Positions 1-17,810 of a stretch of DNA of 64,000 nt are shown here, in pieces (position 1 is the stretch's first letter; each line of letters starts with the position of its first letter). The notes beneath the pieces are model-generated. The model ran no database searches. It saw only the letters and a list, made by a program, of their open reading frames with translations, and was not told the DNA's origin. This stretch comes from Escherichia phage LQ5. The DNA is taken from the sequence record OR677401. One strand, written 5' to 3'. The translations under genes and the position numbers were made by a program.

Positions 1-2
1 CG

Positions 3-2555: not shown

Positions 2556-2563
<8 letters not shown>
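1802..2563 (+). CDS. 1: deoxynucleoside monophosphate kinase
   Basis: N-terminal P-loop GIKRSGKDT and recalled T4 gp1 blocks (WSVRRLMQ.LGTD, MYWVKLFALDY, HITEAGLPI). Confidence 0.9.
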
Positions 2564-3256
<693 letters not shown>

Positions 3257-3267
3257 TTTAAAAAGGT

Positions 3268-3307
3268 GTTTACAAGGTCTATAGGCATGATACTATAGAC
3301 CTATCAA
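3268..3307 (+). promoter_or_regulatory. early-type promoter cassette: GTTTACA (-35) + conserved TGATACTATAGACCTATCAA box, with inverted repeat GGTCTATAG/CTATAGACC
   Basis: Conserved sequence read directly; repeated at 3835, 12224 with near-identical flanks. Confidence 0.6.
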
Positions 3308-3333
3308 AACAAACTAACCGCACGGAAATCAAA

Positions 3334-3558
3334 ATGAAAACTTATCAAGAATTTATCACCGAAGCTAAAAGACATGAAGATGAACTGCCAATTGTTACAA
3401 AAACCTTTGATGGCACACTGGCTGATTTTAAAAAAGTCCCTAGTGATAAGCTTGCTAAATTGACTGGCTCTATCAATGAAAAAGGTGGCAAGGTCACGTT
3501 TTCTGCTGGCGGCATAGCCAATCTTAAAAAACTTTTGAAAGCCGCTGGCGCTGAATAA
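3334..3558 (+). CDS. internal protein (Ip) with capsid targeting sequence
   Basis: N-terminus MKTYQEFITEA is the conserved T4 internal-protein targeting signal cleaved by the prohead protease. Confidence 0.7.
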   Translation: MKTYQEFITEAKRHEDELPIVTKTFDGTLADFKKVPSDKLAKLTGSINEKGGKVTFSAGGIANLKKLLKAAGAE

Positions 3559-3559
3559 A

Positions 3560-3832
3560 ATGAAATCATACCAAGAATTTATCGCTGAATCTATTCTTAA
3601 TGAAGAAGTAAAAATTAACAAATCTGTTAAGACCATGATTGATAATATAAATCATCTCTATAACATCGATTTGACTAATCACGTAACTTTAGGCAATAAG
3701 CGAAACTTTTTTGTTTTTGATACTTCAGAACTCGACCAGAATCAAATTAACAATATTGAACGTTTTGCTAATGAAAAAGGGCTGCGCCACGAAACAGCTG
3801 GTTATAAAAAGTATGCAATTTATCTAAAATAA
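3560..3832 (+). CDS. internal protein (Ip) with capsid targeting sequence
   Basis: N-terminus MKSYQEFIAES; tandem to previous Ip gene. Confidence 0.65.
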   Translation: MKSYQEFIAESILNEEVKINKSVKTMIDNINHLYNIDLTNHVTLGNKRNFFVFDTSELDQNQINNIERFANEKGLRHETAGYKKYAIYLK

Positions 3833-3834
3833 TT

Positions 3835-3874
3835 GTTTACAAGGTCTATAGGTGTGATACTATAGACCTATCAA
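3835..3874 (+). promoter_or_regulatory. early-type promoter cassette (GTTTACA + TGATACTATAGACCTATCAA)
   Basis: Near-identical copy of cassette at 3268. Confidence 0.6.
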
Positions 3875-3899
3875 AACAAATGAGTGATTGGAGAATAAA

Positions 3900-4085
3900 A
3901 TGAAACGTTGTGAATTAATTAGAAATGTTACTGCACTGGTCGCCGTTACTGCTTTTGGCTTTAGTATGTTTGCAGGATTCATGCTCGATATGCTTTCAAC
4001 TTCCGAGAATATAATCTCTTTAGTAGTGACATTTTTAATTGGTTCAATCTCTTTTGTTATGGATAAAATCTCTAAAGGTGAATAA
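3900..4085 (+). CDS. small hydrophobic membrane protein
   Basis: ATG at 3900 preceded by GGAG; ORF-track start at 3888 is an alternative TTG; hydrophobic 62-aa product. Confidence 0.5.
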   Translation: MKRCELIRNVTALVAVTAFGFSMFAGFMLDMLSTSENIISLVVTFLIGSISFVMDKISKGE

Positions 4086-4486
4086 TGAACGTTGAATATT
4101 ATGTATATGCGGATTATGAAAATAATCCGTCTAAAGATGAAGATAACCGTTTAGGTATTGATGCTTTTGAATCCCCTGCTGCAGCTTGGCAATGGGTTGA
4201 AAGTACTGATATTCCTTACCGTTATATTGAAGTGGTAGACCATGCAGGAAACAAGTATCCTAAGGAAGCATATGTTCCTTCTGGAAAGGTAAATTTCCTT
4301 TTGTTCGCGGGTGATAACTACTATCCACGTGGTGGCTATACCGATTTAATCGCTAAAGCTGCCACTGAAGATGAACTACGTGAAATTGTTAAAGAAAACG
4401 AGAATAAGTTTCTTTACGGCTCCGATCGTTTTGACTGGTGGCAGATTGTTAATGCTAATACCCATACTATTGTAGACGAGGGTTAA
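4085..4486 (+). CDS. hypothetical protein
   Basis: 133-aa ORF, start overlaps upstream stop. Confidence 0.5.
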   Translation: MNVEYYVYADYENNPSKDEDNRLGIDAFESPAAAWQWVESTDIPYRYIEVVDHAGNKYPKEAYVPSGKVNFLLFAGDNYYPRGGYTDLIAKAATEDELREIVKENENKFLYGSDRFDWWQIVNANTHTIVDEG

Positions 4487-4771
4487 ATGCTATACGTTAA
4501 GGTTACTAATCCAGAGAATGGATATAATTCAGACCAGGTTGCAGCAGAGTTACTGATTCGCAACTTTGGCAAAGATGCCGTGCTTGATGTTCAACAGGTT
4601 AATATTGGCCGTAGTTCAAGCGACGTTAAACTCAAAGTTAACGGCCAACGTTATAATTCTGTTAACTTTACTTTTTATACCGCAACTGAAAACGGATTGG
4701 TCGAATACGACATCTTTAAAAATCCTTTGAAGATTGCTTCTATTAAACTTGATTACATTAATATGCTTTAA
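4487..4771 (+). CDS. hypothetical protein
   Basis: 94-aa ORF directly following previous stop. Confidence 0.5.
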   Translation: MLYVKVTNPENGYNSDQVAAELLIRNFGKDAVLDVQQVNIGRSSSDVKLKVNGQRYNSVNFTFYTATENGLVEYDIFKNPLKIASIKLDYINML

Positions 4772-4900
4772 GAATTATGTGATATTATTACTCTATCATT
4801 AATACCCTCTATTACCAAAGGTTCTTCCCTCAAAGAACCTTTCATAATAGACAAGGTCTATTAATTAAACTTACTTTACTTAATTTTATTTGAGGTGTTT

Positions 4901-5167
4901 ATGTTAGTATTAAAATTAGCTTTTTATGACCCTAAAACCAAGACAACAACTACCAAACGTTGTTCTATTTCATATGAATGTCAATTTGGCGAAGTTGAGA
5001 CTGATGGCGAGCCCTTTATGGCAATTGCCGATAGCACATTCGCTAAACCAAAAATAATTCCACTAGTTAACGCTGCGGCTTATCTGGTTGCTCCTGAAGA
5101 AATGACTTATCATACAATTCAGCACATGGCTAAAGATGATAATGCTCCTGCTGGATTTGTAGTTTGA
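4901..5167 (+). CDS. hypothetical protein
   Basis: ATG at 4901 with GAGG 8 nt upstream; ORF-track start 4895 is GTG. Confidence 0.45.
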   Translation: MLVLKLAFYDPKTKTTTTKRCSISYECQFGEVETDGEPFMAIADSTFAKPKIIPLVNAAAYLVAPEEMTYHTIQHMAKDDNAPAGFVV

Positions 5168-5172
5168 TTTAA

Positions 5173-5246
5173 GGCCCTGTAGCTCAATTGGTTAGAGCAT
5201 CCGGCTCATAACTGGCAGGTTTCCGGTTCAAGTCCGGATGGGGCCA
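5173..5246 (+). tRNA. tRNA with CAT anticodon (Met-type gene; probably the AUA-reading Ile tRNA as in T4); no encoded CCA
   Basis: Hand-folded cloverleaf: acceptor GGCCCTG/TGGGGCC, D stem GCTC/GAGC, anticodon loop CTCATAA, T arm TCCGG-TTCAAGT-CCGGA. Confidence 0.75.
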
Positions 5247-5287
5247 TATTTTGAGAACATAAATACTCTTAGAAATAGGAGATATTT

Positions 5288-5953
5288 ATGTTCCATTACA
5301 CTTATAAAATAACAAACAAAATTAATAATAAAATCTATATAGGTGCCCATTCAACCGAAAATTTGAATGATGCATATTTTGGTTCTGGTAAACTCTTAAA
5401 AAAGGCCCAAGCCAAATATGGTATAGAAAATTTCTCTAAAGAAATATTAGAGTTCTTTGACGATAAAACCTCTATGTTTGAGTCAGAAAAGAATATTGTG
5501 ACTGAAGAGTTTTTAAAGCGCCCTGATGTTTATAATTTGAAATTAGGTGGTGAAGGTGGTTGGGACCATTTAAACACTGAAGAATATTTGGATAAAAAGA
5601 AAGAAGCTTCCTTAAAAGGAGTTGCCGCTTTTAAAACCAGATTTGAGAACGACCCAGACCTTAAAGAAAAATATCGTAAAATGGGTTCAGAAAAGTTTAA
5701 ACAACTTTGGGATAATCCTAAGTATAGAGAGAAATTTTCAAATACTAAATCTTTCTTGGGTAAGACCCATTCAGATGAAACCATAAATAAAATGAAAGAA
5801 TCTCACGCCAGAAATAAACATCAACAAGGTGAAAATAATTCCGGATACGGAAAAATGTGGATTCATTCTTTAGAAGAAAAAGTTTCTAAACGTATTAACA
5901 AAACGGATATTATTCCTGAAGGTTGGAATAAAGGCCGTAAAATAAAATTTTGA
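5288..5953 (+). CDS. GIY-YIG homing endonuclease (SegB-like) within the tRNA cluster
   Basis: N-terminal YTYKITNKINNKIYIGAH motif; Lys-rich NUMOD-like C-terminus; lies between the two tRNA genes as T4 segB does. Confidence 0.75.
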   Translation: MFHYTYKITNKINNKIYIGAHSTENLNDAYFGSGKLLKKAQAKYGIENFSKEILEFFDDKTSMFESEKNIVTEEFLKRPDVYNLKLGGEGGWDHLNTEEYLDKKKEASLKGVAAFKTRFENDPDLKEKYRKMGSEKFKQLWDNPKYREKFSNTKSFLGKTHSDETINKMKESHARNKHQQGENNSGYGKMWIHSLEEKVSKRINKTDIIPEGWNKGRKIKF

Positions 5954-5958
5954 ATTAC

Positions 5959-6033
5959 GTCCCGCTGGTGTAATGGATAGCATACGATCCTTCTAAGTTT
6001 GCGGTCCTGGTTCGATCCCAGGGTGGGATACCA
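5959..6033 (+). tRNA. tRNA-Arg (anticodon TCT), CCA encoded
   Basis: Hand-folded: acceptor GTCCCGC/GTGGGAT, anticodon loop CTTCTAA, T arm CCTGG-TTCGATC-CCAGG, 3' ACCA. Confidence 0.8.
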
Positions 6034-6271
6034 AATGAAGACTATTATATAGTCAAGCCGTCGTATGAAGACTGATTACCAGCATTCACCGGCGCAACAA
6101 ACAAGAAACCGGGTCGCTACCGGTAAGTCGTCGGACTGAAGTTCCCTGAATAAGACCCGACTTTAAGGCGTACATGAGTTGACCTCTTAAAGTCCCTTAT
6201 CTCACAGCTGAAACGGCGCACCGAACACTTGCCTAGCAGGTGGAACCCCGACAAGGTTACCCTAGGTTAAA
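6034..6271 (+). ncRNA. candidate stable small RNA(s) downstream of tRNA-Arg (cf. T4 species 1/2 RNAs)
   Basis: ~240 nt with no plausible + strand ORF, several local hairpins (e.g. ACCGG-gtcgcta-CCGGT), ends at an intrinsic terminator. Confidence 0.3.
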
Positions 6272-6299
6272 GGCCCTTCCGAAAGGTTGGGCCTTTTTT
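6272..6299 (+). terminator. intrinsic terminator GGCCC-(12 nt)-GGGCC + T6
   Basis: Hairpin followed by T-run; identical copy at 6897-6925. Confidence 0.7.
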
Positions 6300-6300
6300 G

Positions 6301-6308
6301 TATAAATA
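6301..6308 (+). promoter_or_regulatory. T4-type late promoter TATAAATA
   Basis: Exact TATAAATA about 28 nt upstream of ORF 6337. Confidence 0.45.
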
Positions 6309-6336
6309 TGTAAGTTAAACTAACCTAGGAAATAAT

Positions 6337-6891
6337 ATGAAACTTTTAAAATATTTGAGTTGGGTACTGTTGGTTCCACTGGATTTTATCTCTATGGTTC
6401 TGGCTGTTATCCTTGCACCATTTGTGGTTCCTTTCCACAATAAAAAGACAGGTAAATTACCGTACGGGTTTGATTGGATGATGACATACGATAATCCAAT
6501 TGACGGTGACAAAGGTCATATTAAACGTTGGGCTAAAATCAGGAAAATGCCAGGTGGTGTTTATCTCCAGAGAGTAGCTTGGCTATGGCGAAATAAAGCT
6601 TATAACTTTGCTTATCATAAACTTGGACGCGATTGTAGTTCGGAATTCCATTATCGTGGTAATCCTGACGTAGAATCAGGTTCTCCTGATAAAGCTCATC
6701 ATGGGTGGCTATGGATGTGGAATGACGACGCCTGGGGTGTATTTGCTTCAGTTCCTTATCTTAAGGTTGGTGGAATCACATTTTACCTTCGAGTGTACTG
6801 TGGCTGGAAGCTTAAAAGTCTTTTGTCTCGTAAAATCCCTAAGGCTATGTTAGCCTTCCACATAAACCCATTCCGGTTCTACAAGAACTGA
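6337..6891 (+). CDS. hypothetical protein with N-terminal transmembrane segment
   Basis: 184-aa ORF flanked on both sides by the same 28-nt terminator hairpin. Confidence 0.6.
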   Translation: MKLLKYLSWVLLVPLDFISMVLAVILAPFVVPFHNKKTGKLPYGFDWMMTYDNPIDGDKGHIKRWAKIRKMPGGVYLQRVAWLWRNKAYNFAYHKLGRDCSSEFHYRGNPDVESGSPDKAHHGWLWMWNDDAWGVFASVPYLKVGGITFYLRVYCGWKLKSLLSRKIPKAMLAFHINPFRFYKN

Positions 6892-6896
6892 TTCTA

Positions 6897-6925
6897 GGCC
6901 CTTCCGAAAGGTTGGGCCTTTTTTT
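6897..6925 (+). terminator. intrinsic terminator, duplicate of 6272-6299
   Basis: GGCCC-ttccgaaaggtt-GGGCC + T7. Confidence 0.7.
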
Positions 6926-6949
6926 GTTTCTAAAAAGTTTAAAAAAGAT

Positions 6950-6989
6950 GTTTACTCTTTCGTAGAACATGATACTATAGACCTATCAA
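6950..6989 (+). promoter_or_regulatory. early-type promoter cassette (GTTTACT + TGATACTATAGACCTATCAA)
   Basis: Conserved box read directly. Confidence 0.6.
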
Positions 6990-7013
6990 AACAACAGTGT
7001 GAAGGAGAGTAAA

Positions 7014-7277
7014 ATGGATAATTATGGTGAAGTGTTTAATTTCTTTATGAAATGTGTTCCGGAAGAATTTGGTGCCACAGTTAACGATATTAAGGTTATC
7101 GGTCCTGAACACCCGGTGTATGAAACCTATGCAGTAATGGGTAATGAAGATGGACAGTGGTATACAATTAAAGTTGTGATTAATATGTTCTCAGCTGAAG
7201 GTTACGCCAAATCGTCTACCAAAGTTTACCATGGTAATGATTTTGATGCAGAAAATTATTTCAATAATATGAAATAA
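7014..7277 (+). CDS. hypothetical protein
   Basis: ATG at 7014 after GAAGGAGAG; ORF-track start 6999 is GTG. Confidence 0.55.
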   Translation: MDNYGEVFNFFMKCVPEEFGATVNDIKVIGPEHPVYETYAVMGNEDGQWYTIKVVINMFSAEGYAKSSTKVYHGNDFDAENYFNNMK

Positions 7278-7280
7278 AAC

Positions 7281-7321
7281 GTTTACATGGGCTCATGATT
7301 AAGATATTATGAGCCCATAAT
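7281..7321 (+). promoter_or_regulatory. GTTTACA followed by perfect 10-bp stem-loop ATGGGCTCAT/ATGAGCCCAT enclosing a -10-like TATTAT
   Basis: Inverted repeat read directly; no T-run. Confidence 0.5.
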
Positions 7322-7335
7322 TTGAGGAGAACATA

Positions 7336-7734
7336 ATGAATATCGAAGATAAAGAAATGCAAGAGTTGTATAATTCATTAACACCTGAACAACAAAAATA
7401 TGCCAAAGAACTAGAGAAAGCTCTTACTTTCAACTTGGCAAAAACTGATTGGGCCGCGATGTATGAAGAAAAAACTAGATTAGAAATTGAAGCTGCTGAG
7501 AGAAATGAATGGGTTGTCGAAACCAAGATTTCTGATGGTGGTTGCTCTGTTGAGGTGTCTGCTGTAATTAAAGGTACCCATGGCGAAAAATCATGGGGCT
7601 GGCATAATGAAGCAAACAAACATATTGTTCTCTCAACGTCAAAAACTTATGGCCAAAGGGTTCCTGTATCTAAAGCTATTATTAAGCAAGCTCAATGGGA
7701 AGCCAATGAAATCTGCCTCGCAAAAATGAAATAA
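7336..7734 (+). CDS. hypothetical protein
   Basis: 132-aa ORF with GAGGAGA RBS. Confidence 0.6.
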   Translation: MNIEDKEMQELYNSLTPEQQKYAKELEKALTFNLAKTDWAAMYEEKTRLEIEAAERNEWVVETKISDGGCSVEVSAVIKGTHGEKSWGWHNEANKHIVLSTSKTYGQRVPVSKAIIKQAQWEANEICLAKMK

Positions 7735-7737
7735 AAT

Positions 7738-7773
7738 GTTTACAAACCTCAGAGGACAGGGTATAATGTCCTC
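7738..7773 (+). promoter_or_regulatory. sigma70-like promoter GTTTACA-N17-TATAAT with inverted repeat GAGGACA/TGTCCTC flanking the -10
   Basis: Read directly. Confidence 0.6.
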
Positions 7774-7810
7774 ATGGATTACAAAACGTTAACCAACTGA
7801 AGGAAATACT

Positions 7811-8404
7811 ATGAACACTTTAAAGAAAATCGTTGAATTCATTCGTTCTAAACTGGGCACCGCAATGGCTCAGAACCTGTCAATCGAAGACCAATACACA
7901 AAAGCTGCTTCTACTCTGATTGATAAAATCACTGAACTCCAGACTGCTCATGTTAAGTCTGTGAATGAAGAAAAACGTATTCGTGCATTGGCTAATGAAA
8001 AAGACCAGCTCGCTGCTTCTAAAGAACGTGAAATTCGTAAACTGATTGCCGAAGGCGCTGATGTCCAGGTACATGCTAAACTTGGCCTCCTTTATCGTCG
8101 TACAGCTACCCAGCTTCGTAAGAAAGCCGATGATTATATCGAAATGCGTAATGAAATTAAACTGAAGGTTAAGGAACTTGATGACTCTCGTCAGGAACTA
8201 GCCGTTAAGCTCGAGTACATTCGTGAAACTCGTAATATGGCTGCCCTTGGTATTGCTACTGCCGATGATGTTGTTGAAATCGCTGCACTGACCAAGATTG
8301 ATATTGAAGACACCCTACTGCGTGTAGAAACGTTTAAAGGCCCACAAGTTGGAATGGATACGACTTCTGCTGATATCGAAGACTACATTAATTCACTTAA
8401 GTAA
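7811..8404 (+). CDS. coiled-coil protein, possibly PspA-like
   Basis: 197 aa, heptad-rich charged helices; PspA resemblance is impression only. Confidence 0.55.
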
Positions 8405-8411
8405 TTTTACT

Positions 8412-8434
8412 GGGAGACTTCGGTCTCCCTATTT
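8412..8434 (+). terminator. intrinsic terminator GGGAGAC-TTCG-GTCTCCC
   Basis: UUCG tetraloop hairpin followed by T-rich tract. Confidence 0.6.
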
Positions 8435-8452
8435 GGAGGAGAGGAGAATATT

Positions 8453-8989
8453 ATGGGTTTATATGATAATTTGATATCAAATATTGATTGGTTTAAAAAT
8501 AGTGGTCTTTCCCATGAAACCAATTCAGTTCTTTATAGAATTCGCCAAGACCTAGGCTATTCAAACGATTTCTTAAGCAGAACATCTAGCCGTGGCGATA
8601 CTACCAAATTACCTTTTATTTTTGCTTTAGCTGAAGACCTTTCTTTTGAAGATGCTTTGGAAATTATTGACGTAAATCTGGCTATTCAACGAGTGGAATT
8701 CGCTGGGCTACGCTATTCAGTATACTCTTTAAATGAACCAAGCGATTATAAACAGCTTACTAATGCCGACGATGATTACCATTTAGTATGCTATTTGATG
8801 TTAGAAAATGGTGACCATTTTGGTATGGTCGACCGCCGCCCATCTTACTCTGATATTAAAAATTACGATAAAGACGAGCTTATTATTTTAGCCAATGAGT
8901 ATACATCAGAGATTCGAAAACAACAACGGAAGCTTAATCGTTTTATTGCTGAATGCCGTGAATACGCTAAAGAGGTTCAAAATGTATAA
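8453..8989 (+). CDS. hypothetical protein
   Basis: 178-aa ORF; C-terminal NRFIAECR motif shared with 8982 and 13203 products. Confidence 0.6.
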   Translation: MGLYDNLISNIDWFKNSGLSHETNSVLYRIRQDLGYSNDFLSRTSSRGDTTKLPFIFALAEDLSFEDALEIIDVNLAIQRVEFAGLRYSVYSLNEPSDYKQLTNADDDYHLVCYLMLENGDHFGMVDRRPSYSDIKNYDKDELIILANEYTSEIRKQQRKLNRFIAECREYAKEVQNV

Positions 8990-9332
8990 GCCTAGTAAAA
9001 CCGACCCTGGTTACGCATTAGCAGATTATGATATTGCTATTTCTTTATTCGCTGGACTTGTCACTGGTACGATTGCCGGACTTGTTGGACTAATTGCTGG
9101 TGGAGTCGTTAATGATACGACACAAAACATATTTGAATTGAACCTTGCCTGGATTTGGGTTCCTGCTTTAATAGGGTATTTTATCCCATTGGTCTTTGAT
9201 ATTGCCCAAACCAATAAAATAAACAAGCCACGTAAAAAGAGATATGCTGTATCGATGGCTAATTATAATGAGTATGTAAAACAAACCAAACGTAATGACC
9301 TTGAAACCTTTATTAAGGAATGTAAATCATGA
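8982..9332 (+). CDS. hypothetical membrane protein
   Basis: ATG at 8982 overlaps upstream stop; Gly-rich TM segments; C-terminal ETFIKEC. Confidence 0.55.
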   Translation: MYKPSKTDPGYALADYDIAISLFAGLVTGTIAGLVGLIAGGVVNDTTQNIFELNLAWIWVPALIGYFIPLVFDIAQTNKINKPRKKRYAVSMANYNEYVKQTKRNDLETFIKECKS

Positions 9333-9619
9333 ATAAAATTGAAATCGAAATCCCGGAACACAATGACGAGAAATCTGCAGAAAAGGCTATCTATGCTCTT
9401 CTGAATAAAGTGAATACCATCGAACATGAATGTGAAGCTATTGCCGATAAGTATGGTATCCAATTCGGTACTGGTGATTATGGTTCAGGCCGTACATATT
9501 ATCCTGTCGGTTATGAATGCTCCCAGTGGTTTAAAGATGAAATTGAAAACAACGGTGGTGAAGTTGAAAATGGCGTCGTTACAGTTGGTGCTTGGATCTC
9601 CTCTTCGGCAATGTGCTAA
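9329..9619 (+). CDS. small acidic protein, member 1 of a tandem paralog family (C-terminal W-x-SSS-x-x-C)
   Basis: 96 aa; ends GAWISSSAMC; stop TAA followed by GGA forming the next gene's RBS. Confidence 0.6.
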   Translation: MNKIEIEIPEHNDEKSAEKAIYALLNKVNTIEHECEAIADKYGIQFGTGDYGSGRTYYPVGYECSQWFKDEIENNGGEVENGVVTVGAWISSSAMC

Positions 9620-9628
9620 GGAAACGCT

Positions 9629-9910
9629 ATGATGAATGATTACCATAAAAATAAAGAATTGGCTGAAGCAGTAAATGATATCCATAAAGCTATTCGTCGT
9701 GCCGAGGAAATTGCAAACAAATATGAGACTCATTTTAATATATACCCTGCTCGCGGTATGGGCGGTGACTATTATTCTCCTGGCGCCTTGAAAGCCGACC
9801 TTGCCCACTGGGAAGAATACGGTGAAGCTCAGTACGCTATTGTAAACCAACATGATTACACTACCAGCCTAGAAAATGGTGGTTGGGTGTCCTCTTCTTC
9901 TGAATGTTAA
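9629..9910 (+). CDS. small acidic protein, paralog family member 2
   Basis: 93 aa; ends GGWVSSSSEC. Confidence 0.6.
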   Translation: MMNDYHKNKELAEAVNDIHKAIRRAEEIANKYETHFNIYPARGMGGDYYSPGALKADLAHWEEYGEAQYAIVNQHDYTTSLENGGWVSSSSEC

Positions 9911-9919
9911 GGAAATAAA

Positions 9920-10132
9920 ATGACTATTGATGAAATTGAAAACCAAATCCGTGAATTAGTACGTAAAGGCCAGTCTGTGGCTGACGAAACGGGTGAAGAG
10001 TTCCGTGTTTCTGGTCGTGGAGAATACATTTCTCCAAAGAACCCGGAATATGATGATTACGAATGGGTCCGTGATGACTACGGTATTCCGGAAGGTGAAG
10101 GTTTCTGGTTTACATCCTCTATGTCTTGCTAA
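9920..10132 (+). CDS. small acidic protein, paralog family member 3
   Basis: 70 aa; ends GFWFTSSMSC. Confidence 0.6.
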   Translation: MTIDEIENQIRELVRKGQSVADETGEEFRVSGRGEYISPKNPEYDDYEWVRDDYGIPEGEGFWFTSSMSC

Positions 10133-10143
10133 GGTGATAAAAA

Positions 10144-10368
10144 ATGTCTGATATTAATGAATTAGAAAAAGCTGCACTTGAACTGGCCGCACTGTATAAG
10201 AAAGTAAAAGATATGGCTTCTGCTCAAAGTTTTGGTGTTGAGCTCGACGATTATGACGGTGAAGTTCGTCTCGAAGATTGGCTGAATAGCTCGTGTTATG
10301 GCGAAGAAGCTGGTCGCACCTTCGTTGCTCAGGCCGATGGTAAAATCTGGTATCCGAGCTCATGCTAA
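10144..10368 (+). CDS. small acidic protein, paralog family member 4
   Basis: 74 aa; ends GKIWYPSSC. Confidence 0.6.
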   Translation: MSDINELEKAALELAALYKKVKDMASAQSFGVELDDYDGEVRLEDWLNSSCYGEEAGRTFVAQADGKIWYPSSC

Positions 10369-10589
10369 AATTAAAGAAAAGATACATTCGTAAAATAAAT
10401 GGTCTTCGCGATTATGCCAAAGGTTGGCCGTTAAGTATTATTATGGCTGATAGACACCCGCGTTATAATACTGAGATGACTTATTACAAAAAGTACGATT
10501 CATATTGTCGGTCTAAAGCAGGTCGTTTAGATGGTTCTTATGAAGACTATTTCGGTAAAAAACCTACTCGTATTTCGTTAGGAAAATAA
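10362..10589 (+). CDS. hypothetical basic protein
   Basis: ATG overlaps upstream stop (ATGCTAA). Confidence 0.45.
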   Translation: MLKLKKRYIRKINGLRDYAKGWPLSIIMADRHPRYNTEMTYYKKYDSYCRSKAGRLDGSYEDYFGKKPTRISLGK

Positions 10590-10619
10590 TTTAACCACAT
10601 GGATGTGGTAGGAGGACTT

Positions 10620-10949
10620 ATGCATAAAGATTCAGTATTCAAATATCTTTTGAAAACAAATAAAGAATTCTATATGAATGGACAGGCCTTCTTGTTCGTT
10701 CGTGGTAAACGTGAGATGTTTTACAAATGCGACCTCTCAATGCACCATCATATGTATCACACCCGCGGTGAGCCTATACTGGGGTTCTCTGGTGACGAGA
10801 CTAGACACATAGCTATGTACTACGACCATTTTAAGCTCAATGATTGCGGTGACAACGCTTTGGTCTGGAACCCGTCTTGGCGTCGTTGGGATACAGTAGA
10901 CAATGATAAATTATTTTTAGAATATTGCAGAAGTGATGTACAACTCTAG
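10620..10949 (+). CDS. hypothetical protein
   Basis: Likely start at internal ATG 10620 after AGGAGGA; ORF-track start 10599. Confidence 0.5.
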   Translation: MHKDSVFKYLLKTNKEFYMNGQAFLFVRGKREMFYKCDLSMHHHMYHTRGEPILGFSGDETRHIAMYYDHFKLNDCGDNALVWNPSWRRWDTVDNDKLFLEYCRSDVQL

Positions 10950-10992
10950 AAAATCATGTTACTATTACCCTACACAAACATGAGGAGAACAT

Positions 10993-11232
10993 ATGTGGTA
11001 TTACGCTCCGATGTCCGATAAGTCTAATGAACCGGTACGCATTACTCGCGCCAAGTTTAAAAAGATTTATGGCTTCTCTTATAAGAAGTCTGATTACGGT
11101 GTTCGTTTTGAAGATGCCCACTGTATCAATGACCCTTATGCTGAAGAAATCTCTAATGAGATAATTCCTATCATTAAGAATAATTCTGATGATATGTGGG
11201 AATTGCATAACGATTACGTCGCTGAAATTTAA
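10993..11232 (+). CDS. hypothetical protein
   Basis: 79-aa ORF with GAGGAGAA RBS. Confidence 0.5.
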   Translation: MWYYAPMSDKSNEPVRITRAKFKKIYGFSYKKSDYGVRFEDAHCINDPYAEEISNEIIPIIKNNSDDMWELHNDYVAEI

Positions 11233-11251
11233 GTTTACTGAGGAAAATATT

Positions 11252-12211
11252 ATGATGTTAGTTATTGGTTCTCGTGCACTGCACCACGCTGGTCTGATTG
11301 AAAGTAAGCATATCGAAAATTCTGATTGGGATTTCATTGCCGACCAAGGCTCATGGAATCACTTTAAAGCACGTATGTTCGGCGCCCATGTACACGTTGA
11401 CAATCCTGGTGTCCAGGCTTTCAAATGTATGCATAATGGTAAAGAAACCTATTTTGAAGCTTATATCGTTCGTGCTCTGACTAACGTACGAGAAATTACC
11501 GGTGAGCTTCAAGACGAAGATTTCACTTCAAGCTATCGTCTCCTGAAATATGCTGAAAATCATATTAAAAAGGACCGTCTTACTGGTTTCTATTGGGCCA
11601 CCCCTGATATCTGTCTGGCTATCAAAACCTCTCATCGTTTCCTTAAGAATAATCCGTTCTTCTTGAAAACTATGTCACACATCAAATACCTTCGTAATAA
11701 AGGTATCACCCTTAACGAAGAACTCCAGGAAATTATGCTGCAACGTCAAAAAGAAACGTTGAGCTATTCTCACCCTAAATTGGACGTAAACAAATCATCG
11801 TTCTTTAATGATACCATTTATACGCTGGACCATGACTCTATTCATGAAGCAGTGGCATTGGCAGGGCGCCCTGCATATACCTTTTATATGAAGGAAGGTT
11901 CTGAAGTCATGACCTCTCGTGAGAAGTTCGAGGCTTTGCCTGAAGCTATTAAACTGGCTGGTGTGTATGAAGAAACTTGTGTCCTGGCACTAGAACGTTC
12001 ACAGGTTCCTAATGACTTCAATATTTCACCATCATTAAGTTTCTATATGGCCCTTGAGAAAGTGTGCACCTCAATCACTTCAGGTTGGTTCCGCACTTAT
12101 GCATGGGAAAACTACCAAGCTGTAGTGAATATGTATAAGACTTTAGGTGAAAACGACTACATTGAACGGTTTAAGCGTAACCAACATTTAATTCGTCCTT
12201 TCGAAAAATAA
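11252..12211 (+). CDS. hypothetical protein (~320 aa)
   Basis: ATG at 11252 after GAGGAAA; ORF-track start 11189 lies in upstream gene. Confidence 0.6.
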   Translation: MMLVIGSRALHHAGLIESKHIENSDWDFIADQGSWNHFKARMFGAHVHVDNPGVQAFKCMHNGKETYFEAYIVRALTNVREITGELQDEDFTSSYRLLKYAENHIKKDRLTGFYWATPDICLAIKTSHRFLKNNPFFLKTMSHIKYLRNKGITLNEELQEIMLQRQKETLSYSHPKLDVNKSSFFNDTIYTLDHDSIHEAVALAGRPAYTFYMKEGSEVMTSREKFEALPEAIKLAGVYEETCVLALERSQVPNDFNISPSLSFYMALEKVCTSITSGWFRTYAWENYQAVVNMYKTLGENDYIERFKRNQHLIRPFEK

Positions 12212-12223
12212 TTGCACAAAACA

Positions 12224-12263
12224 GTGTACAAGGTCTATAGGTGTGATACTATAGACCTATCAA
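12224..12263 (+). promoter_or_regulatory. early-type promoter cassette (GTGTACA + TGATACTATAGACCTATCAA)
   Basis: Near-identical to cassettes at 3268 and 3835, including the downstream leader. Confidence 0.6.
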
Positions 12264-12289
12264 AACAACAGAGTGAAATGGAGAATAAA

Positions 12290-12502
12290 ATGAAACTTTC
12301 TAACCAAGCAATCAACATGTTAAACGAAGTTCGTGCAGCTGGTGCTAAATGCCTGATGGTTAACACTCGTGACGGTGACCTTCGTCAAGCATTTGGTGAA
12401 TTGAAATCTGCTGACCTGGTTAAATGTTCAGTTGGTATTGGTAACGCACTTCGTGTATCCTTATCCCCTAAAGGTAAAATGTACTTTTTCAACAAAAAGT
12501 AA
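12290..12502 (+). CDS. hypothetical small protein
   Basis: ATG 12290 after GGAGAATAAA; ORF-track start 12212 lies inside the promoter cassette. Confidence 0.55.
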   Translation: MKLSNQAINMLNEVRAAGAKCLMVNTRDGDLRQAFGELKSADLVKCSVGIGNALRVSLSPKGKMYFFNKK

Positions 12503-12516
12503 GTGAGGAAAATATT

Positions 12517-13203
12517 ATGAATAGTTCTAAAGTGTTTAATAGTCAAGCTCGTGCAGTAGGCGGTTTTGCTCATGCAATTAAAAACGACCAGATTAAAAAC
12601 GAGCCTATGTTCTTTAACTGTGATTTGAATTTTGCTTTTGATAATGGCGGCCCAATTACTCGTAGCTTTATCCAAAATCTTCCTGACGATTGGAAAGACT
12701 CGGATGTAGTATTTGATTCCCGTGTACACATGTTAATGCCTGGCTGGTATCCTGCTATCCCAGGTTATCACCATGATGATGTACCACGTCCGGATATTCC
12801 GGTGGGTCAACACTTTATTACCGCAGGGCAACCTGATTATGATAATCCTCGATACCATTCTGAACATATTCTTGGTCTTGTTAACGCTGATGTGTGTCCT
12901 ACTCATTTTGCAACCGGAACTGCACAGTTCAGTCAGATTCCTGAAGGCGAACTTATCTATCGCCAGTGGCATAAAGAAGTTCTGGAAAAAATTGAGTCCA
13001 ATGAATTAACCAAGTGGGATGCTCCTGACCGCACGTTACTCCAGTTTGATTGGCAAACATGGCATACAGGTTCTCGTGCAGTAAGTAACGGGTGGCGCTG
13101 GTTTGGTCGTGTGTCTCGTAATACAGACCGTGTTAAAAAGATTACAAATGAAATCCGCGTTAATGCTCAAGTATATCTGGAATTCCCTATGGAGGGCTGG
13201 TAA
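12517..13203 (+). CDS. hypothetical protein
   Basis: 228-aa ORF with GAGGAAA RBS. Confidence 0.6.
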   Translation: MNSSKVFNSQARAVGGFAHAIKNDQIKNEPMFFNCDLNFAFDNGGPITRSFIQNLPDDWKDSDVVFDSRVHMLMPGWYPAIPGYHHDDVPRPDIPVGQHFITAGQPDYDNPRYHSEHILGLVNADVCPTHFATGTAQFSQIPEGELIYRQWHKEVLEKIESNELTKWDAPDRTLLQFDWQTWHTGSRAVSNGWRWFGRVSRNTDRVKKITNEIRVNAQVYLEFPMEGW

Positions 13204-13796
13204 TGGCCCTTTATGAACCTGGTTGTATGGGTATTGATACAAACTTCATCCGTCGGTCGGAAAATGCTGGAATTATTATCCCAAGTGGTGAGACTATGAT
13301 TATTAAAAAGTCCTGGCGAAATATTGATGATGGTGATGAAGGAATTTCAGCCAGTACAATAGATTGGTCAGGTTGTACTGCCGAAATGAAACAGCTTTTA
13401 ATTGAGGAATATAAAATGGGCTATATTGTAAACGGCTGGCAACCAGTAAAGAAAATCACTCGCACTGACGATAAGTATATTTGTCTCCAAGATGGAAAGG
13501 CCAGGCTCATTGATACTGAATGGCTTACGTTCGGACGATATGTTGTAGCGTATTTTATTACTTTACTTCCAATGTTAGTGCTGAGTTCATTTTTAATCGA
13601 TGCCAACTGGAATGATGCGCTAGAACGAACTATTATTGGCGCTGGATTAATGAACCTTGCCGCCGCTGGCGCTGCTTTAAGTATTTGGTGCTTGGCTATT
13701 GAAATGCCATGGCGTTTACGTCGTCAACAACGTCTTTACGACGAAGGTAAAATCAAACAGAATTTAAATGAGTTTATTGAGGAATGCCGTAAATGA
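13203..13796 (+). CDS. hypothetical membrane protein
   Basis: Start overlaps upstream stop; hydrophobic segments; C-terminal NEFIEECRK. Confidence 0.55.
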   Translation: MALYEPGCMGIDTNFIRRSENAGIIIPSGETMIIKKSWRNIDDGDEGISASTIDWSGCTAEMKQLLIEEYKMGYIVNGWQPVKKITRTDDKYICLQDGKARLIDTEWLTFGRYVVAYFITLLPMLVLSSFLIDANWNDALERTIIGAGLMNLAAAGAALSIWCLAIEMPWRLRRQQRLYDEGKIKQNLNEFIEECRK

Positions 13797-14029
13797 GTAT
13801 TGCAATTTATATTAAATCTGAGTCATGTGATTCTTACCTGTATTCCTATGATACCGGAACATCAGAAGAGAAAATTAAAGAAGACTTAGAAAGCGATATG
13901 GATATGTTCTGTCCTATTGGTGACTATATGCTTCAAGTGTCTGATAGTGAAAGTCCATCATCAGAAAATAGACTTCAAATTATTATGCAAGATATTTTTA
14001 AACAATCATGGGAACGAGACGATGAGTAA
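13793..14029 (+). CDS. hypothetical acidic protein
   Basis: 78-aa ORF, coupled start. Confidence 0.5.
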   Translation: MSIAIYIKSESCDSYLYSYDTGTSEEKIKEDLESDMDMFCPIGDYMLQVSDSESPSSENRLQIIMQDIFKQSWERDDE

Positions 14030-14471
14030 GAAAGTGAAAGAACTATCTGCCGGTATTTTATTCATGACCGTTGATAAAGAACTGGTCATGGGCCGTGTAA
14101 CAGGCTCTCGTAATCCAGAGAATATGCGTCATAAATGGGACATTCCTAAGGGTCATGTCGAACCAGGCGAAGAGCCTATTCAAGCGGCAATGCGCGAAAC
14201 CGAAGAAGAGATTGGATTCACAGCATACGATCCTGCATTCCTGAAAGACCTAGGTGAGTTCAAATATTCAAGCAATAAGAATCTACATCTGTTCTTATAT
14301 ACAGTGCCTGTGGAACACGAGCAGTTCAAGGATTGCAAATGTACGGCTTACCATACATTCCCTGATGGTCGTACTATTCCTGAATTCGATGCGTTCGCCT
14401 TGATTAAACGTCCGCAATGGGAATATGTCATGGGTAAGTCGATGTTTAAGGTTTTAGATTCGCTCTTTTGA
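14022..14471 (+). CDS. nudE: Nudix hydrolase (NudE-like)
   Basis: Nudix box GHVEPGEEPIQAAMRETEEEIGF; immediately upstream of lysozyme e; start 14022 overlaps upstream stop. Confidence 0.75.
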   Translation: MSKKVKELSAGILFMTVDKELVMGRVTGSRNPENMRHKWDIPKGHVEPGEEPIQAAMRETEEEIGFTAYDPAFLKDLGEFKYSSNKNLHLFLYTVPVEHEQFKDCKCTAYHTFPDGRTIPEFDAFALIKRPQWEYVMGKSMFKVLDSLF

Positions 14472-14499
14472 TATAAATACCTCCTATACTCAGGAGGTA
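14472..14499 (+). promoter_or_regulatory. late promoter TATAAATA followed by hairpin ACCTCCT/AGGAGGT that sequesters the lysozyme RBS
   Basis: Same arrangement as T4 gene e, where early read-through transcripts are translationally silent. Confidence 0.6.
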
Positions 14500-14501
14500 T
14501 T

Positions 14502-14990
14502 ATGGATATTTTTGATATGTTACGTCAAGACGAAGGTCTTGATTTAAATCTTTATAAAGACACTGAAGGTTATTGGACTATTGGTATTGGCCAATTGATT
14601 ACTAAGAACCCTTCTAAAGATGTTGCTCGTGCTGAACTTGATAAGCTTATGGGTCGAGTTTGTAATGGTCGTATTACTATGGCTGAAGCCGAGCAACTCT
14701 TTAATCGATCGGTTGAAAATGCTCGTAGAGCTATTCTGCGTAATCCTAAATTGAAACCTGTTTATGATGTATTGGACGAAGTTCGTCGTTGTGCACTGAT
14801 TAATATGGTATTCCAAATGGGTGAAGCAGGTGTAGCAGGGTTCACTAACTCTTTACGTATGCTCCAACAGAAACGTTGGAACGATGCGGCAGTTAACCTG
14901 GCTCAATCCCGTTGGTATAAACAAACTCCTAATCGTGCTAAGCGTGTTATCGCCACCTTTAAAACCGGCACATGGGCTGCTTATAGATAA
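14502..14990 (+). CDS. e: lysozyme (endolysin)
   Basis: Strong match to recalled T4 lysozyme ([48 protein letters not shown]). Confidence 0.92.
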
Positions 14991-14995
14991 AAGCA

Positions 14996-15035
14996 GTTTA
15001 CATCTCCTAGAATTGTGATAGTATATCTACAGTTA
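14996..15035 (+). promoter_or_regulatory. degenerate early-type promoter cassette
   Basis: GTTTACATCTCC followed by TGATAGTATA box variant. Confidence 0.4.
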
Positions 15036-15077
15036 CTTGAACAGACCAATTAAAATATTTACCTTTAAGGAACCCGT

Positions 15078-15674
15078 ATGAAAACGTATAAAGAATTTAT
15101 CGCCGAAGCTTCTGTAGGAAAGGTCCAAGGCATTAATAAAGATGAGTGGACTTACAAAGGAAACGGCGTTGACAACCCAGGAAATGGTTTTAACGCTAAA
15201 ACAGCTCCTATTGAACGGTACTTGGCTACAAAAGCTTCCGACTTTAAAGCTTTCGCCTGGGAAGGACTTCGCTGGCGTAACGACCTAAATATTGAAGTTG
15301 ACGGACTTAAATTTGCTCATATTGAAGATGTTGTTGCTAGTAACTTAGATGCAGCTTTTGTTAAAGCTGACGGTGACCTTCGTCGCTGGAATTTAAAACT
15401 GTTCTCTAAACGGAAAGGCCCGGTATTTGTACCTAAAGCAGGTAAATGGACTATTGATAATAAATTGGCTAAAGCAGTTAACTTCGCCGGTCTTGAATTT
15501 GCCAAGCACAAATCAACATGGAAAGGTCTTGATGCAATGACTTTCCGTAAAGAATTTGCCGATGTTATGGCTAAAGGCGGCTTTAAGGCAGAAATAGATA
15601 CCTCTAAAGGTACGTTTAAAGACGCTAATATTCAGTACGCTTACGCCGTTGCTAATGCAGCCCGTGGTAATTAA
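15078..15674 (+). CDS. internal protein (IpIII-like) with capsid targeting sequence
   Basis: N-terminus MKTYKEFIAEA; 198 aa. Confidence 0.7.
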   Translation: MKTYKEFIAEASVGKVQGINKDEWTYKGNGVDNPGNGFNAKTAPIERYLATKASDFKAFAWEGLRWRNDLNIEVDGLKFAHIEDVVASNLDAAFVKADGDLRRWNLKLFSKRKGPVFVPKAGKWTIDNKLAKAVNFAGLEFAKHKSTWKGLDAMTFRKEFADVMAKGGFKAEIDTSKGTFKDANIQYAYAVANAARGN

Positions 15675-15698
15675 TAAAGCCGATACTTGATAAAAGTT

Positions 15699-15749
15699 GT
15701 TTACATCTCCTGTAGTCATGATACTATAGACCTATCAACTACAGGAGAT
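15699..15749 (+). promoter_or_regulatory. promoter/stem-loop cassette: GTTTACA, arms ATCTCCTGTAG/CTACAGGAGAT flanking the conserved box; 3' arm holds the RBS
   Basis: Perfect 11-bp inverted repeat read directly. Confidence 0.65.
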
Positions 15750-15754
15750 TAAAA

Positions 15755-16171
15755 ATGACTCGTATCAACCTTACCTTAGTATCTGAATTGGCTGACCAAC
15801 ACTTAATGGCTGAATATCGTGAATTACCACGTGTTTTCGGTGCAGTTCGTAAGCATGTTGCTAATGGTAAACGTGTCCGTGATTTCAAAATCAGTCCTAC
15901 TTTTATCCTTGGCACAGGCCATGTTACATTCTTTTACGATAAGCTTGAATTTTTACGTAAGCGACAAATTGAGCTTATAGCCGAATGTTTAAAACGTGGT
16001 TTTAATATCAAGGATACTACTGTCCAGGACATTAGTGACATTCCTCAGGAATTCCGTGGTGACTATACTCCACACGAAGCTTCTATTGCTATATCTCAGA
16101 CCCGTTTGGATGAAAAAATTGCACAGCGTCCTACCTGGTACAAACATTATGGCAAGGCTATTTACGCTTAA
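15755..16171 (+). CDS. denV: endonuclease V (pyrimidine-dimer DNA glycosylase)
   Basis: 138 aa, near-identical to recalled T4 DenV ([35 protein letters not shown]). Confidence 0.95.
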
Positions 16172-16214
16172 TTAAATCCGTGATAGAATACTTCTATCAA
16201 CTTAAGGAATAACA

Positions 16215-16574
16215 ATGAAAACTTATCAAGAATTTATTACTGAATCTACTCAGCGCATTAACGAAGCTATGTCTCCTGAACAATTGGCTAAGGCTAAAGA
16301 AGGGCTGAACCCATCTGAAGTTTTTAAAGTTACAGGTAAAGACTTTGCTTCCATGGCCACTAACCAAAGTCTGGCTAAAGAACTTAAATCTAAATCTAAC
16401 TTCATTCATGCTACGTGGAATGGTGATTCTCTTACTTCAATAAGTGTGTACAATAAAAAAGGTCTCCTTAAGAGTTCTTATGGCGCGGATGCCATCCGTG
16501 TTTCTAAATCAGATTGGCATAAAAACACTACTAAAGCAGAAAAACCTCATAACCCGGCACTAGACCATCTTTAA
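16215..16574 (+). CDS. internal protein (Ip) with capsid targeting sequence
   Basis: N-terminus MKTYQEFITES. Confidence 0.7.
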   Translation: MKTYQEFITESTQRINEAMSPEQLAKAKEGLNPSEVFKVTGKDFASMATNQSLAKELKSKSNFIHATWNGDSLTSISVYNKKGLLKSSYGADAIRVSKSDWHKNTTKAEKPHNPALDHL

Positions 16575-16582
16575 GGCTTAAT

Positions 16583-16840
16583 ATGAAAACTTACCAAGAA
16601 TTTATTACAGAATCCACTTTAGTTTCTAAACGTTGGAATATGATTGTAAACGTTAAACCTTCCGGCACTGAAGTTTCTATGGCCGACCCTAATGATGACG
16701 AACTTGAGCACGCTTTTAGCTCTAAAGAAACTGACGAGAAAGTGGTTAAGCAACTGGTTGCTGATGCAGATCAACTTCGTAAAGTAGCAGATGTTGTTAA
16801 GCTGTTTACTAAGAAAGGTTTTAAACACGAAGAACGTTAA
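16583..16840 (+). CDS. internal protein (Ip) with capsid targeting sequence
   Basis: N-terminus MKTYQEFITES. Confidence 0.7.
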   Translation: MKTYQEFITESTLVSKRWNMIVNVKPSGTEVSMADPNDDELEHAFSSKETDEKVVKQLVADADQLRKVADVVKLFTKKGFKHEER

Positions 16841-16989
16841 TTAGCATTTTAAATGGGAGCAACCTGGACCTCACAATTCTGTGAGGGACTCCCGCCAACC
16901 TGTAATAAGGTCGAGCCCAAGTGCGGTAATGGGTAAATGCAGAAAGGGACGAATTAATGTGCCAAGGAACGGCCCTCAAAGGAAATACT
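16841..16989 (+). other. structured non-coding leader or small RNA candidate
   Basis: 150 nt without ORF; nested hairpin GGGAG...CCTCACA-attc-TGTGAGG...CTCCC. Confidence 0.35.
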
Positions 16990-17517
16990 ATGAAATTTTT
17001 AACTCCCATTTATCTAACCTTAATGCACGCCTTCGCTGAACGCGCCATTGAACGTTTAGACTCAGACCAATATACCTGGTATGAACCTGCTTCAAGAATG
17101 CAAGAGTTTGGTACTCTTCGACTTGATGGCGGACGCCAAACAGGTAAAACAAGTGCCCTTGCTCAGTTCGCCGCTGATTGGGTTTCCAAGGGTAATGATG
17201 TGATTGTTATGTCGAGTTCTTCGCATCGCTCGCGAGAAATTTGTAATGTAATAAAACAGGTTTCTAAGGCACACCCACATCTCCAAGTCGAAGGTCCTGG
17301 TTTTGTTGTCTATGATACTGTGCGCAGTTTCCTTGATGAAGACAATTTCCATAAGTATCGTGGACTATCTGTTACTCGATTATTGATTATTATCGAAGAG
17401 CCAATGCGCCTTCCAGCGATGGATAAGTTCTATGAAGCTTACCAGGTAATGATTAATAAATTTATGTGCCAAGGCGACAAGCCTTTGCCTCTGTTCTTTG
17501 TGATAGGAATGCAATGA
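16990..17517 (+). CDS. small P-loop NTPase
   Basis: Walker A GGRQTGKTS and Walker B-like LLIIIEEP; ATG 16990 after AAAGGAAA. Confidence 0.6.
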   Translation: MKFLTPIYLTLMHAFAERAIERLDSDQYTWYEPASRMQEFGTLRLDGGRQTGKTSALAQFAADWVSKGNDVIVMSSSSHRSREICNVIKQVSKAHPHLQVEGPGFVVYDTVRSFLDEDNFHKYRGLSVTRLLIIIEEPMRLPAMDKFYEAYQVMINKFMCQGDKPLPLFFVIGMQ

Positions 17518-17810
17518 TGACTGATGAAGAACTTTTTGAGTTCTGTTATTTCTCACGTAAGGTTCGAAGAGAGGACCTTACTGCAAATTTCGAATATGCT
17601 TATTTCTATCCATTAGAATATGTATTCATGACAGGGCCCTTTAAGGGCTCTCGTTTTAGATGTCATGCTCCTAGTATCCGATTAATGAAACAGGTTCCTT
17701 ACTTCACTCTCGAGTTCATCTCAGGGCCTTGTAAGGGTATTATTGCTCGTAGTCTCTTGACTTATGACCAAGAGATTCATATGATTTCTGATTGGAAAAA
17801 ATATGTCTAA
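17514..17810 (+). CDS. hypothetical protein
   Basis: Start overlaps upstream stop (ATGATGA). Confidence 0.5.
   Translation: MMTDEELFEFCYFSRKVRREDLTANFEYAYFYPLEYVFMTGPFKGSRFRCHAPSIRLMKQVPYFTLEFISGPCKGIIARSLLTYDQEIHMISDWKKYV

Follow-up and report, generated by a model that had tools for sequence, protein, structure and literature searches.

The capsid targeting sequence (CTS) of the internal proteins (IPs, or Ips) of T-even phages was reportedly described by Mullaney and Black in 1996, and the anti-restriction roles of the phage T4 IPs are said to have been the subject of work by Bair in 2007, Srikant in 2022, and Silas in 2025. The T4 proteins IPII and IPIII share the N-terminal leader MKTYQEFIAE, which is the experimentally defined CTS, and amber-suppression mutagenesis of T4 IPIII assigned residues 4 and 7 to capsid targeting and residues 8 and 10 to processing (PMC9026906). 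It has also been found that T4 Ip1 inhibits the GmrSD enzyme of Escherichia coli CT596, Ip2 that of ECOR21, and Ip3 that of ECOR17, which is encoded by two genes, and that none of the three protects against the target of another (PMC12373910). Growth of T4 on ECOR17 requires IPIII, and infection is rescued by IPIII lacking the CTS if the host expresses it (PMC9391042). Polymorphic ip genes at two loci with flanking promoter elements go back to Repoila et al. 1994, as cited in PMC2839356, PMC3012670, and PMC12373910. Here, we describe five open reading frames (ORFs) in a stretch of 64,000 nucleotides (nt) of Escherichia phage LQ5 (record OR677401; one strand, 5′ to 3′), referred to below as the window, that are very probably ip genes of a Dhakavirus-type T-even phage encoding injected anti-defence proteins. 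The observation is correct, but it re-derives a well-documented system (CTS, two loci, and shuffling) and adds no new principle.

An original prediction, made from the letters of the window, had proposed five ORFs on the + strand that start with MK(T/S)Y(Q/K)EFI(T/A)E, and all five are present (Table 1; genes without an Ip name are designated by the position of their first nucleotide). A degenerate DNA pattern for this leader was found at exactly 5 sites in the 64 kb, compared to 0.01 expected from dinucleotide-preserving shuffles, and a six-frame scan of the window with looser protein patterns yielded no sixth leader-bearing ORF. The same prediction held that the bodies following the leader are unrelated to each other, which agrees with an all-versus-all blastp comparison of residues 11 to the end, the best E-value being 0.09 in the five-sequence database. 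It had also placed the genes in two clusters, and this is accurate: there is a pair in cluster 1 and a trio, split by denV, in cluster 2.

The conservation of the leader was evaluated in 48 CTS ORFs, taken from the window and 13 related loci. Residues M1, K2, and F7 were invariant (48 of 48), and Y4 (46 of 48), E6, I/L8, and E10 (each 47 of 48) were nearly so, the sole exception at E10 being T4 IPI, with its 19-residue leader. Residue 11 was A or S in 41 of the 48 ORFs, and the sequences diverged freely from residue 12. The most conserved positions are the targeting (4 and 7) and processing (8 and 10) residues of T4 IPIII, and Y4, F7, I8, and E10 are present in all five window ORFs. The residue that follows Glu10 is A in the 3334 and 15078 proteins and S in the 3560, 16215, and 16583 proteins, which fits the gp21 protease site (L/I-x-E then A/S/G).

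The amino acids of the leader are kept while the codons vary, with Thr3 encoded by ACT, ACG, ACA, or ACC, Tyr4 by TAT or TAC, and Ile8 by ATC or ATT, and such variation is seen even among the five copies in the window. Therefore, selection acts on the leader peptide, and the leader is not explained by mere copying of DNA. The leader is also kept in ip9 and in the 16583 gene despite their having no promoter of their own, these genes starting 1 nt and 8 nt, respectively, past the upstream stop codon. The ratio of nonsynonymous to synonymous substitution rates (dN/dS) of all five gene bodies relative to their homologs was 0.03 to 0.39, which indicates purifying selection, and the five ORFs are thus constrained coding sequences.

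The proposal in the original prediction that the leader is a T4-type capsid-targeting signal gains support from the match to the T4 CTS, from the canonical IP loci, and from three named Ip families. The annotation of phage WG01, used as a proxy for LQ5 genes that lie outside the window, includes a head maturation protease, two head scaffolding proteins, and a prohead core protein. By analogy with T4, we strongly infer that the LQ5 leaders direct capsid targeting and that they are cleaved after Glu10, which for Ip8 would give a mature N-terminus of AKRHEDELPIVTK. Possible additional gp21-type sites are L-N-E at residues 13–15 of Ip9, I-N-E at residues 47–49 of Ip8, and I-N-E (followed by A) at residues 15–17 of the 16215 protein.

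The LQ5 window is assigned to a Dhakavirus (Tevenvirinae), that is, a JS98/WG01/PSD9-like T-even phage. Clusters 1 and 2 had 96–98% DNA identity to JS98/IME08/WG01/QL01/PSD9-like phages, and the closest relative was WG01, with 97.5% DNA identity at cluster 2. Both clusters occupy the two classical polymorphic IP loci of the T-even phages, as indicated by synteny with T4, IME08, JS10, PSD9, and RB15, with the 57B-trna.4 slot of cluster 1 corresponding to the T4 ipI position and the slot of cluster 2 to the position of T4 ipIII and ipII. LQ5 resembles T4 in its identical or near-identical ten-residue IPII/IPIII leader, in the e/denV locus, and in its early-promoter arrangement. In contrast to T4, it has no IPII ortholog, and whereas the T4 gene order is e-ipIII-ipII-denV, in LQ5 denV is situated between ipIII and the other two ip genes. 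The polymorphic T-even ip genes (Ip4–Ip13 and others) are similarly small, leader-bearing ORFs at the 57B-trna.4 and e-denV loci with early-promoter and stem-loop flanks, and their number, order, and identity vary by phage.

Table 1. Coordinates of the ip genes, their promoters and repeats, and the cytosine-modification genes in the LQ5 window (aa, amino acids; pI, isoelectric point).
Feature	Coordinates	Strand	Description
Cluster 1	3334-3832		two adjoining ip genes between 57B (2801-3256) and trna.4-like gene (3888-4085)
Promoter with embedded palindrome (AGGTCTATAG...CTATAGACCT)	3260-3313	+	upstream of Ip8; left copy of 54-nt direct repeat
Ip8 promoter	3269-3296	+	TTTACA-16-TACTAT with TG; promoter scan
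ip8-family gene	3334-3558	+	74 aa; MKTYQEFITE then AKRHEDEL...; mature body 64 aa, pI 9.6
ip9-family gene	3560-3832	+	90 aa; MKSYQEFIAE then SILNEE...; body pI 8.0
Promoter/palindrome repeat	3827-3880	+	right copy of 54-nt repeat; drives trna.4-like gene; bounds ip8-ip9 module
Cluster 2	15078-16840		three ip genes on both sides of denV (15755-16171), between e (14502-14990) and vs.8 (16957-17517)
ipIII promoter	14997-15024	+	TTTACA-16-TAGTAT with TG; near-identical to T4 ipIII promoter region
ipIII ortholog	15078-15674	+	198 aa; MKTYKEFIAE then ASVGK...; mature body 188 aa, pI 9.6
16215-gene promoter	16161-16189	+	TTTACG-17-TAGAAT with TG; overlaps denV end; conserved in AnYang, QL01, PSD9
16215 gene, unnamed Ip family	16215-16574	+	119 aa; MKTYQEFITE then STQRINE then A...; body pI 9.5
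16583 gene, unnamed near-orphan Ip family	16583-16840	+	85 aa; MKTYQEFITE then STLVSK...; mature body 75 aa, pI 6.1
RB69-type cytosine hypermodification cluster	~48900-53650	+	next to DNA polymerase; flanking ORFs without Pfam match
NTP-transferase and aminoglycoside-phosphotransferase-like kinase fusion	49454-51157	+	567 aa
Thymidylate-synthase homolog	52046-52744	+

In cluster 1, the 3334 protein is identified by homology as Ip8, having 86% identity over residues 1–57 to RB15 Ip8 (Z35082.1) and VR5 'ip8' and matching phrog_8765 'internal virion protein' (E = 8e-27), and its gene had a dN/dS of 0.19–0.26. The 3560 protein is likewise identified as Ip9, since it matches phrog_7673 'internal head protein' (E = 6.5e-56) and groups with RB15 Ip9 and IME08 'Ip9'. 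Because ip9 starts 1 nt past the ip8 stop codon and has no promoter of its own, it is probably co-transcribed with ip8. The GenBank entry Z35082.1, 'RB15 DNA for Ip5, Ip9, Ip7, Ip8', ends in 57B and trna.4; locus 1 of RB15 is therefore Ip5-Ip9-Ip7-Ip8, whereas that of LQ5 is Ip8-Ip9 only, in that order. T4 IPI* (Ip1, the inhibitor of the CT596 GmrSD) is encoded at the same locus and has similar delivery logic, and its mature protein is a small, compact alpha/beta structure; it differs in having a longer and divergent 19-residue leader (MKTFKEFTSTTTPVSTITE) and no sequence similarity to any of the five LQ5 bodies. A further leader-bearing ORF (205 aa, MKTYNEFLNE...) was noticed in phage IME08 at 4520-5137, downstream of tRNA genes and hence at a third location outside the classical IP loci, and the six-frame leader scan of the LQ5 window found no counterpart of it.

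In cluster 2, the 15078 protein was 87% identical to T4 IPIII over its full length (E = 1.5e-129) and matched phrog_5341 (E = 4e-114), it is annotated as IpIII in JS10, PSD9, QL01, MX01, and AnYang, and its gene had a dN/dS of 0.22–0.24; the protein is identified by this homology as the T4 IPIII ortholog. The 16215 protein matched phrog_3966 'unknown function' (E = 1e-26), and homologs were present in 90 phage records, all named 'hypothetical', of which 12 had at least 90% identity and 78 had 28–38% identity. The matches listed in the 28–38% group are RB69-like Mosigvirus coliphages, with copies at about 36% identity, and the one Mosigvirus homolog looked at, from phage APCEc01, starts with MKTYQEFITE and is placed after denV. 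The dN/dS of the 16215 gene was 0.03–0.39.

Only 6 phage records contained the 16583 protein, all with at least 97.6% identity and the name 'hypothetical', and it formed one cluster among 5.8 billion proteins; its body had two representatives among 1.84 billion proteins, both of them leader-bearing. The more distant of these two, with 50% identity, starts with MKTYQEFITE and is likewise encoded by the last gene before vs.8, on a 119-kb T-even contig that has five leader-bearing ORFs around denV. In a set of sequence searches with the 16215 and 16583 proteins, every match was a near-identical phage protein except for this one relative, which is leader-bearing and 50% identical. The bodies of both proteins are unrelated to any T4 IP, and neither family has an Ip name in any record retrieved. 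The main new element of this work is that these two 'hypothetical' genes may, judging by their sequences, be re-annotated as internal-protein genes.

A Pfam search with the five proteins gave nothing above threshold, and the bodies of the two unnamed proteins were modelled with AlphaFold (AF2). The model of the mature 16583 protein had a predicted local confidence (pLDDT) of 92.5 and a pTM of 0.78, with 3 of 5 models at 90 or above, and shows a compact fold of four predicted β strands, two helices, and a C-terminal strand. When this model was compared to the Protein Data Bank (PDB) using Foldseek, the best hit had E = 0.67 and a TM score below 0.4, with no phage internal protein in the top 50 and no likeness to the IPI* fold, and in BFVD it matched solely its own WG01 ortholog (TM 0.95). 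The model of the 16215 body was of moderate confidence (pLDDT 65.7), and the fold search against the PDB gave no match, IPI* included. Because neither the models nor Pfam suggest an enzymatic domain, the two bodies would fit small stoichiometric binders.

The ip genes of LQ5 have the same early-promoter arrangement as those of T4. Promoters of the T4 early type (TTTAC[AG], a spacing of 16–17 nt, and TAnnAT preceded by TG) were found upstream of Ip8, IpIII, denV, the 16215 gene, and the gene after Ip9, and they closely resemble the promoters of T4 ipI, ipII, and ipIII. Two 54-nt direct repeats of promoter and palindrome with 91% identity bracket cluster 1 (Table 1), the denV promoter region (about 15697-15745) has the same TGATACTATAGACCTATCAA core in the cassette form GTTTACA...TGATACTATAGACCTATCAA, and a related copy of the cassette is present at 57609-57649, ahead of a gene near 57.6 kb. 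These repeated cassettes are probable recombination hot spots of the kind represented by the promoter and stem-loop (PeSL) elements. In the RB49/phi1-type PeSL cassettes, direct repeats of a promoter and stem-loop similarly flank small accessory genes and mark recombination breakpoints. The elements at the IP loci are analogs rather than homologs of these, being T4 early promoters with AT-rich palindromes (PMC2839356), and LQ5 differs in that the coding leader adds a second homology patch. Modular shuffling has been proposed for the IP loci, with more than 30 IP variants (Comeau et al. 2007, as cited in PMC2839356) and PeSL-like elements at the two loci (PMC2839356).

Breakpoints were located by aligning the window with AnYang, QL01, and PSD9. 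Phage QL01 lacks the 16215 gene, and the gap falls exactly between two copies of the block TTAAGGnnTAAT-ATG-plus-leader, which includes the Shine–Dalgarno (SD) sequence. In AnYang and QL01, Ip7 is present in place of the 16583 gene, and the homology stops just past leader codon 11 and resumes about 60 nt after the stop codon. Over 12 loci and the window, a single leader precedes 14 unrelated body families, and the position of Ip7 varies, being locus 1 in RB15 and WG01 but locus 2 in five other phages. Thus, at the DNA level, the SD-plus-leader block and the promoter/palindrome cassettes act as homology patches for the swapping of ip cassettes. The last ip gene is separated from vs.8 by a spacer of 116 nt (16841-16956), within which the block CCTGTAATAAGGTCGAGCCCAAGTGCGGTAA is shared without change by four phages, also when the gene ahead of it is a different one. 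An RNA element in this spacer was considered and dropped, since the fold was no better than that of shuffled sequences (z = −0.6) and there was no Rfam match; an Rfam scan of positions 1-18000 gave two tRNAs only.

If the LQ5 proteins behave as do those of T4, the ten-residue CTS would bind each of them to the gp22/gp67/gp68 scaffolding core during prohead assembly, and the prohead protease gp21 would cut after Glu10 (I-x-E then A or S), freeing the mature body inside the head. Hundreds of copies would stay with the packaged DNA and be ejected with it into the cell, where the injected Ips would act ahead of any phage gene expression. At the DNA level, recombination at the homology patches adds, removes, and exchanges ip cassettes, both inside one locus and from one to the other, giving rise to phage-to-phage diversity of the set that would be injected. 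The original prediction had suggested that such a set serves against host defences, and the support for this is stronger than was then available, in that a different GmrSD is inhibited by each of T4 Ip1, Ip2, and Ip3 (PMC12373910) and the leader is dispensable for the cytoplasmic activity of IPIII (PMC9391042). Homology of the body to Ip1, Ip2, or Ip3 was found for the 15078 protein only, the other four resembling T4 IPs in the leader region only. As the ortholog of Ip3, the 15078 protein probably shares its function, and its most likely target is an ECOR17-type GmrSD, a type IV enzyme of two components. An anti-defence role of the 3334, 3560, 16215, and 16583 proteins rests on analogy, by which Ip8, Ip9, and the two unnamed proteins would most likely be specific inhibitors of other first-line defences against DNA containing sugar-modified cytosine.

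The modification of LQ5 DNA bears on what these defences might be. Because the window carries an RB69-type cytosine glycosylation cluster (Table 1), LQ5 DNA is a plausible target of type IV restriction. No α- or β-glucosyltransferase is annotated in 48 kb of WG01, including the region where T4 encodes them, and WG01 annotates a phosphoheptose (phosphosugar) isomerase and a thymidylate kinase at the cytosine-modification region. Dhakaviruses are among the lineages predicted to make arabinosylated 5-hydroxycytosine, as RB69 does (PMC13326640), and the genes present suggest that the DNA of the LQ5 lineage probably contains this base rather than glucosylated hydroxymethylcytosine (glucosyl-hmC). 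The restriction systems met by LQ5 may differ from those aimed at glucosyl-hmC. We raise, as a tentative possibility, that the 16583 and 16215 proteins are injected inhibitors of a defence system not yet linked to Ips, for example a nuclease class that recognizes arabinosylated 5-hydroxycytosine DNA, and if so, the proteins would be handles for finding that defence.

Several points weigh against the reading of the five proteins as injected anti-defence proteins. Packaging, cleavage, and injection rest on the T4 precedent, and no protease or scaffold gene is located in the window itself. A search of a paper library for a Dhakavirus virion proteome gave nothing relevant. A late promoter (TATAAATA) is absent directly upstream of both clusters; the nearest one, at 14472, precedes gene e. 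IPs are classically basic, whereas the 16583 body has a mildly acidic pI. When ten non-T4 ip genes were evaluated with eight active GmrSD systems, no new inhibition was seen (PMC12373910), so it may be that not every Ip is a 'type IV restriction inhibitor'. Furthermore, because the modification in this lineage is probably arabinosyl-5-hydroxycytosine, the target assignments made for T4 may not transfer to LQ5.

A rather unlikely, although still respectable, alternative is that the Ips are injected effectors of which some are aimed at targets other than restriction, such as other immune systems or host take-over. Alt, which is packaged alike, is an ADP-ribosyltransferase that acts on RNA polymerase (PMC9026906), and there is no fold or sequence match of the 16583 and 16215 bodies to guide an assignment. 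However, all three functionally solved Ips are GmrSD inhibitors (PMC12373910), and the bodies are small (64–109 aa, IpIII excepted) and have no enzymatic domain, so that stoichiometric binders fit better than enzymes.

It is improbable that the Ips are packaged but have a mainly structural role, serving condensed DNA as basic counter-ions or as spacers, or assisting assembly of the scaffolding core, instead of being anti-defence effectors. Such a role is in keeping with mature bodies that are basic or near-neutral in four of the five proteins (pI 9.6, 8.0, 9.6, and 9.5), with the approximately 360 copies of each IP per T4 head, and with the accumulation of polyheads by T4 IPIII-minus and IP0 mutants (PMC9026906). 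It leaves unexplained the exchange of at least 14 unrelated bodies among close relatives, the tight purifying selection on each body, and the acidic 16583 body that is well-folded in the model, and T4 IPs are non-essential. The three T4 IPs, moreover, all have specific anti-restriction targets, with IPIII able to rescue infection in the absence of the CTS (PMC12373910, PMC9391042).

The remaining alternative, that the shared N terminus is neither a targeting signal nor cleaved and is a hitch-hiking by-product of a mobile promoter, ribosome-binding site, and leader cassette that serves recombination and translation start, draws on the indel and swap breakpoints marked by the SD-plus-leader block, the directly repeated promoter cassettes around cluster 1, and the shuffling proposed to be mediated by PeSL-like elements at the IP loci (PMC2839356), but it is very improbable given amino acids that stay constant over four Thr3, two Tyr4, and two Ile8 codons, conserved residues that are those of T4 targeting and cleavage (PMC9026906), retention of the motif by genes without their own promoter, the 87% identity of IpIII to the T4 protein that served to define the CTS, and the presence of genes for the protease and scaffold in the relative WG01. 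The original prediction had itself named a duplicated promoter/leader cassette as an alternative; the cassette is real, and it coexists with selection on the leader at the protein level without replacing it. The reading of the leader as merely duplicated DNA was rejected because its codons vary and its amino acids do not.

For the five proteins as injected anti-defence proteins, the significance is that no other phage counter-defence acts as early as internal proteins, which enter together with the DNA and ahead of phage gene expression, and that every solved Ip example has revealed a specific restriction system. The 16583 protein, which has a confident predicted fold and no detectable match, could be used as bait for identification of its host target. 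Since LQ5 pairs Ips with a genome predicted to contain arabinosyl-cytosine, a search for restriction systems aimed at this modification would be worthwhile.

Several other features of the window were noticed. In the hyperplastic region between the IP loci are two conserved phage proteins of unknown function, a 184-aa DUF7338 protein (6337-6891, + strand) and a 340-aa DUF7277+DUF7275 protein (11189-12211, + strand). A tRNA-Met (cat, 5173-5246) and a tRNA-Arg (tct, 5959-6033), both on the + strand, flank an ORF for a homing endonuclease of the GIY-YIG type (5288-5953), an arrangement that recalls segB among the T4 tRNA genes. A tandem array of four small paralogs (96, 93, 70, and 74 aa) occupies 9329-10368 (+ strand). 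All four belong to phrog_899, of unknown function, and their products have conserved F, Y, W, and G positions and an invariant C-terminal W-x-x-S-S-(x-x)-C that ends at the stop codon.

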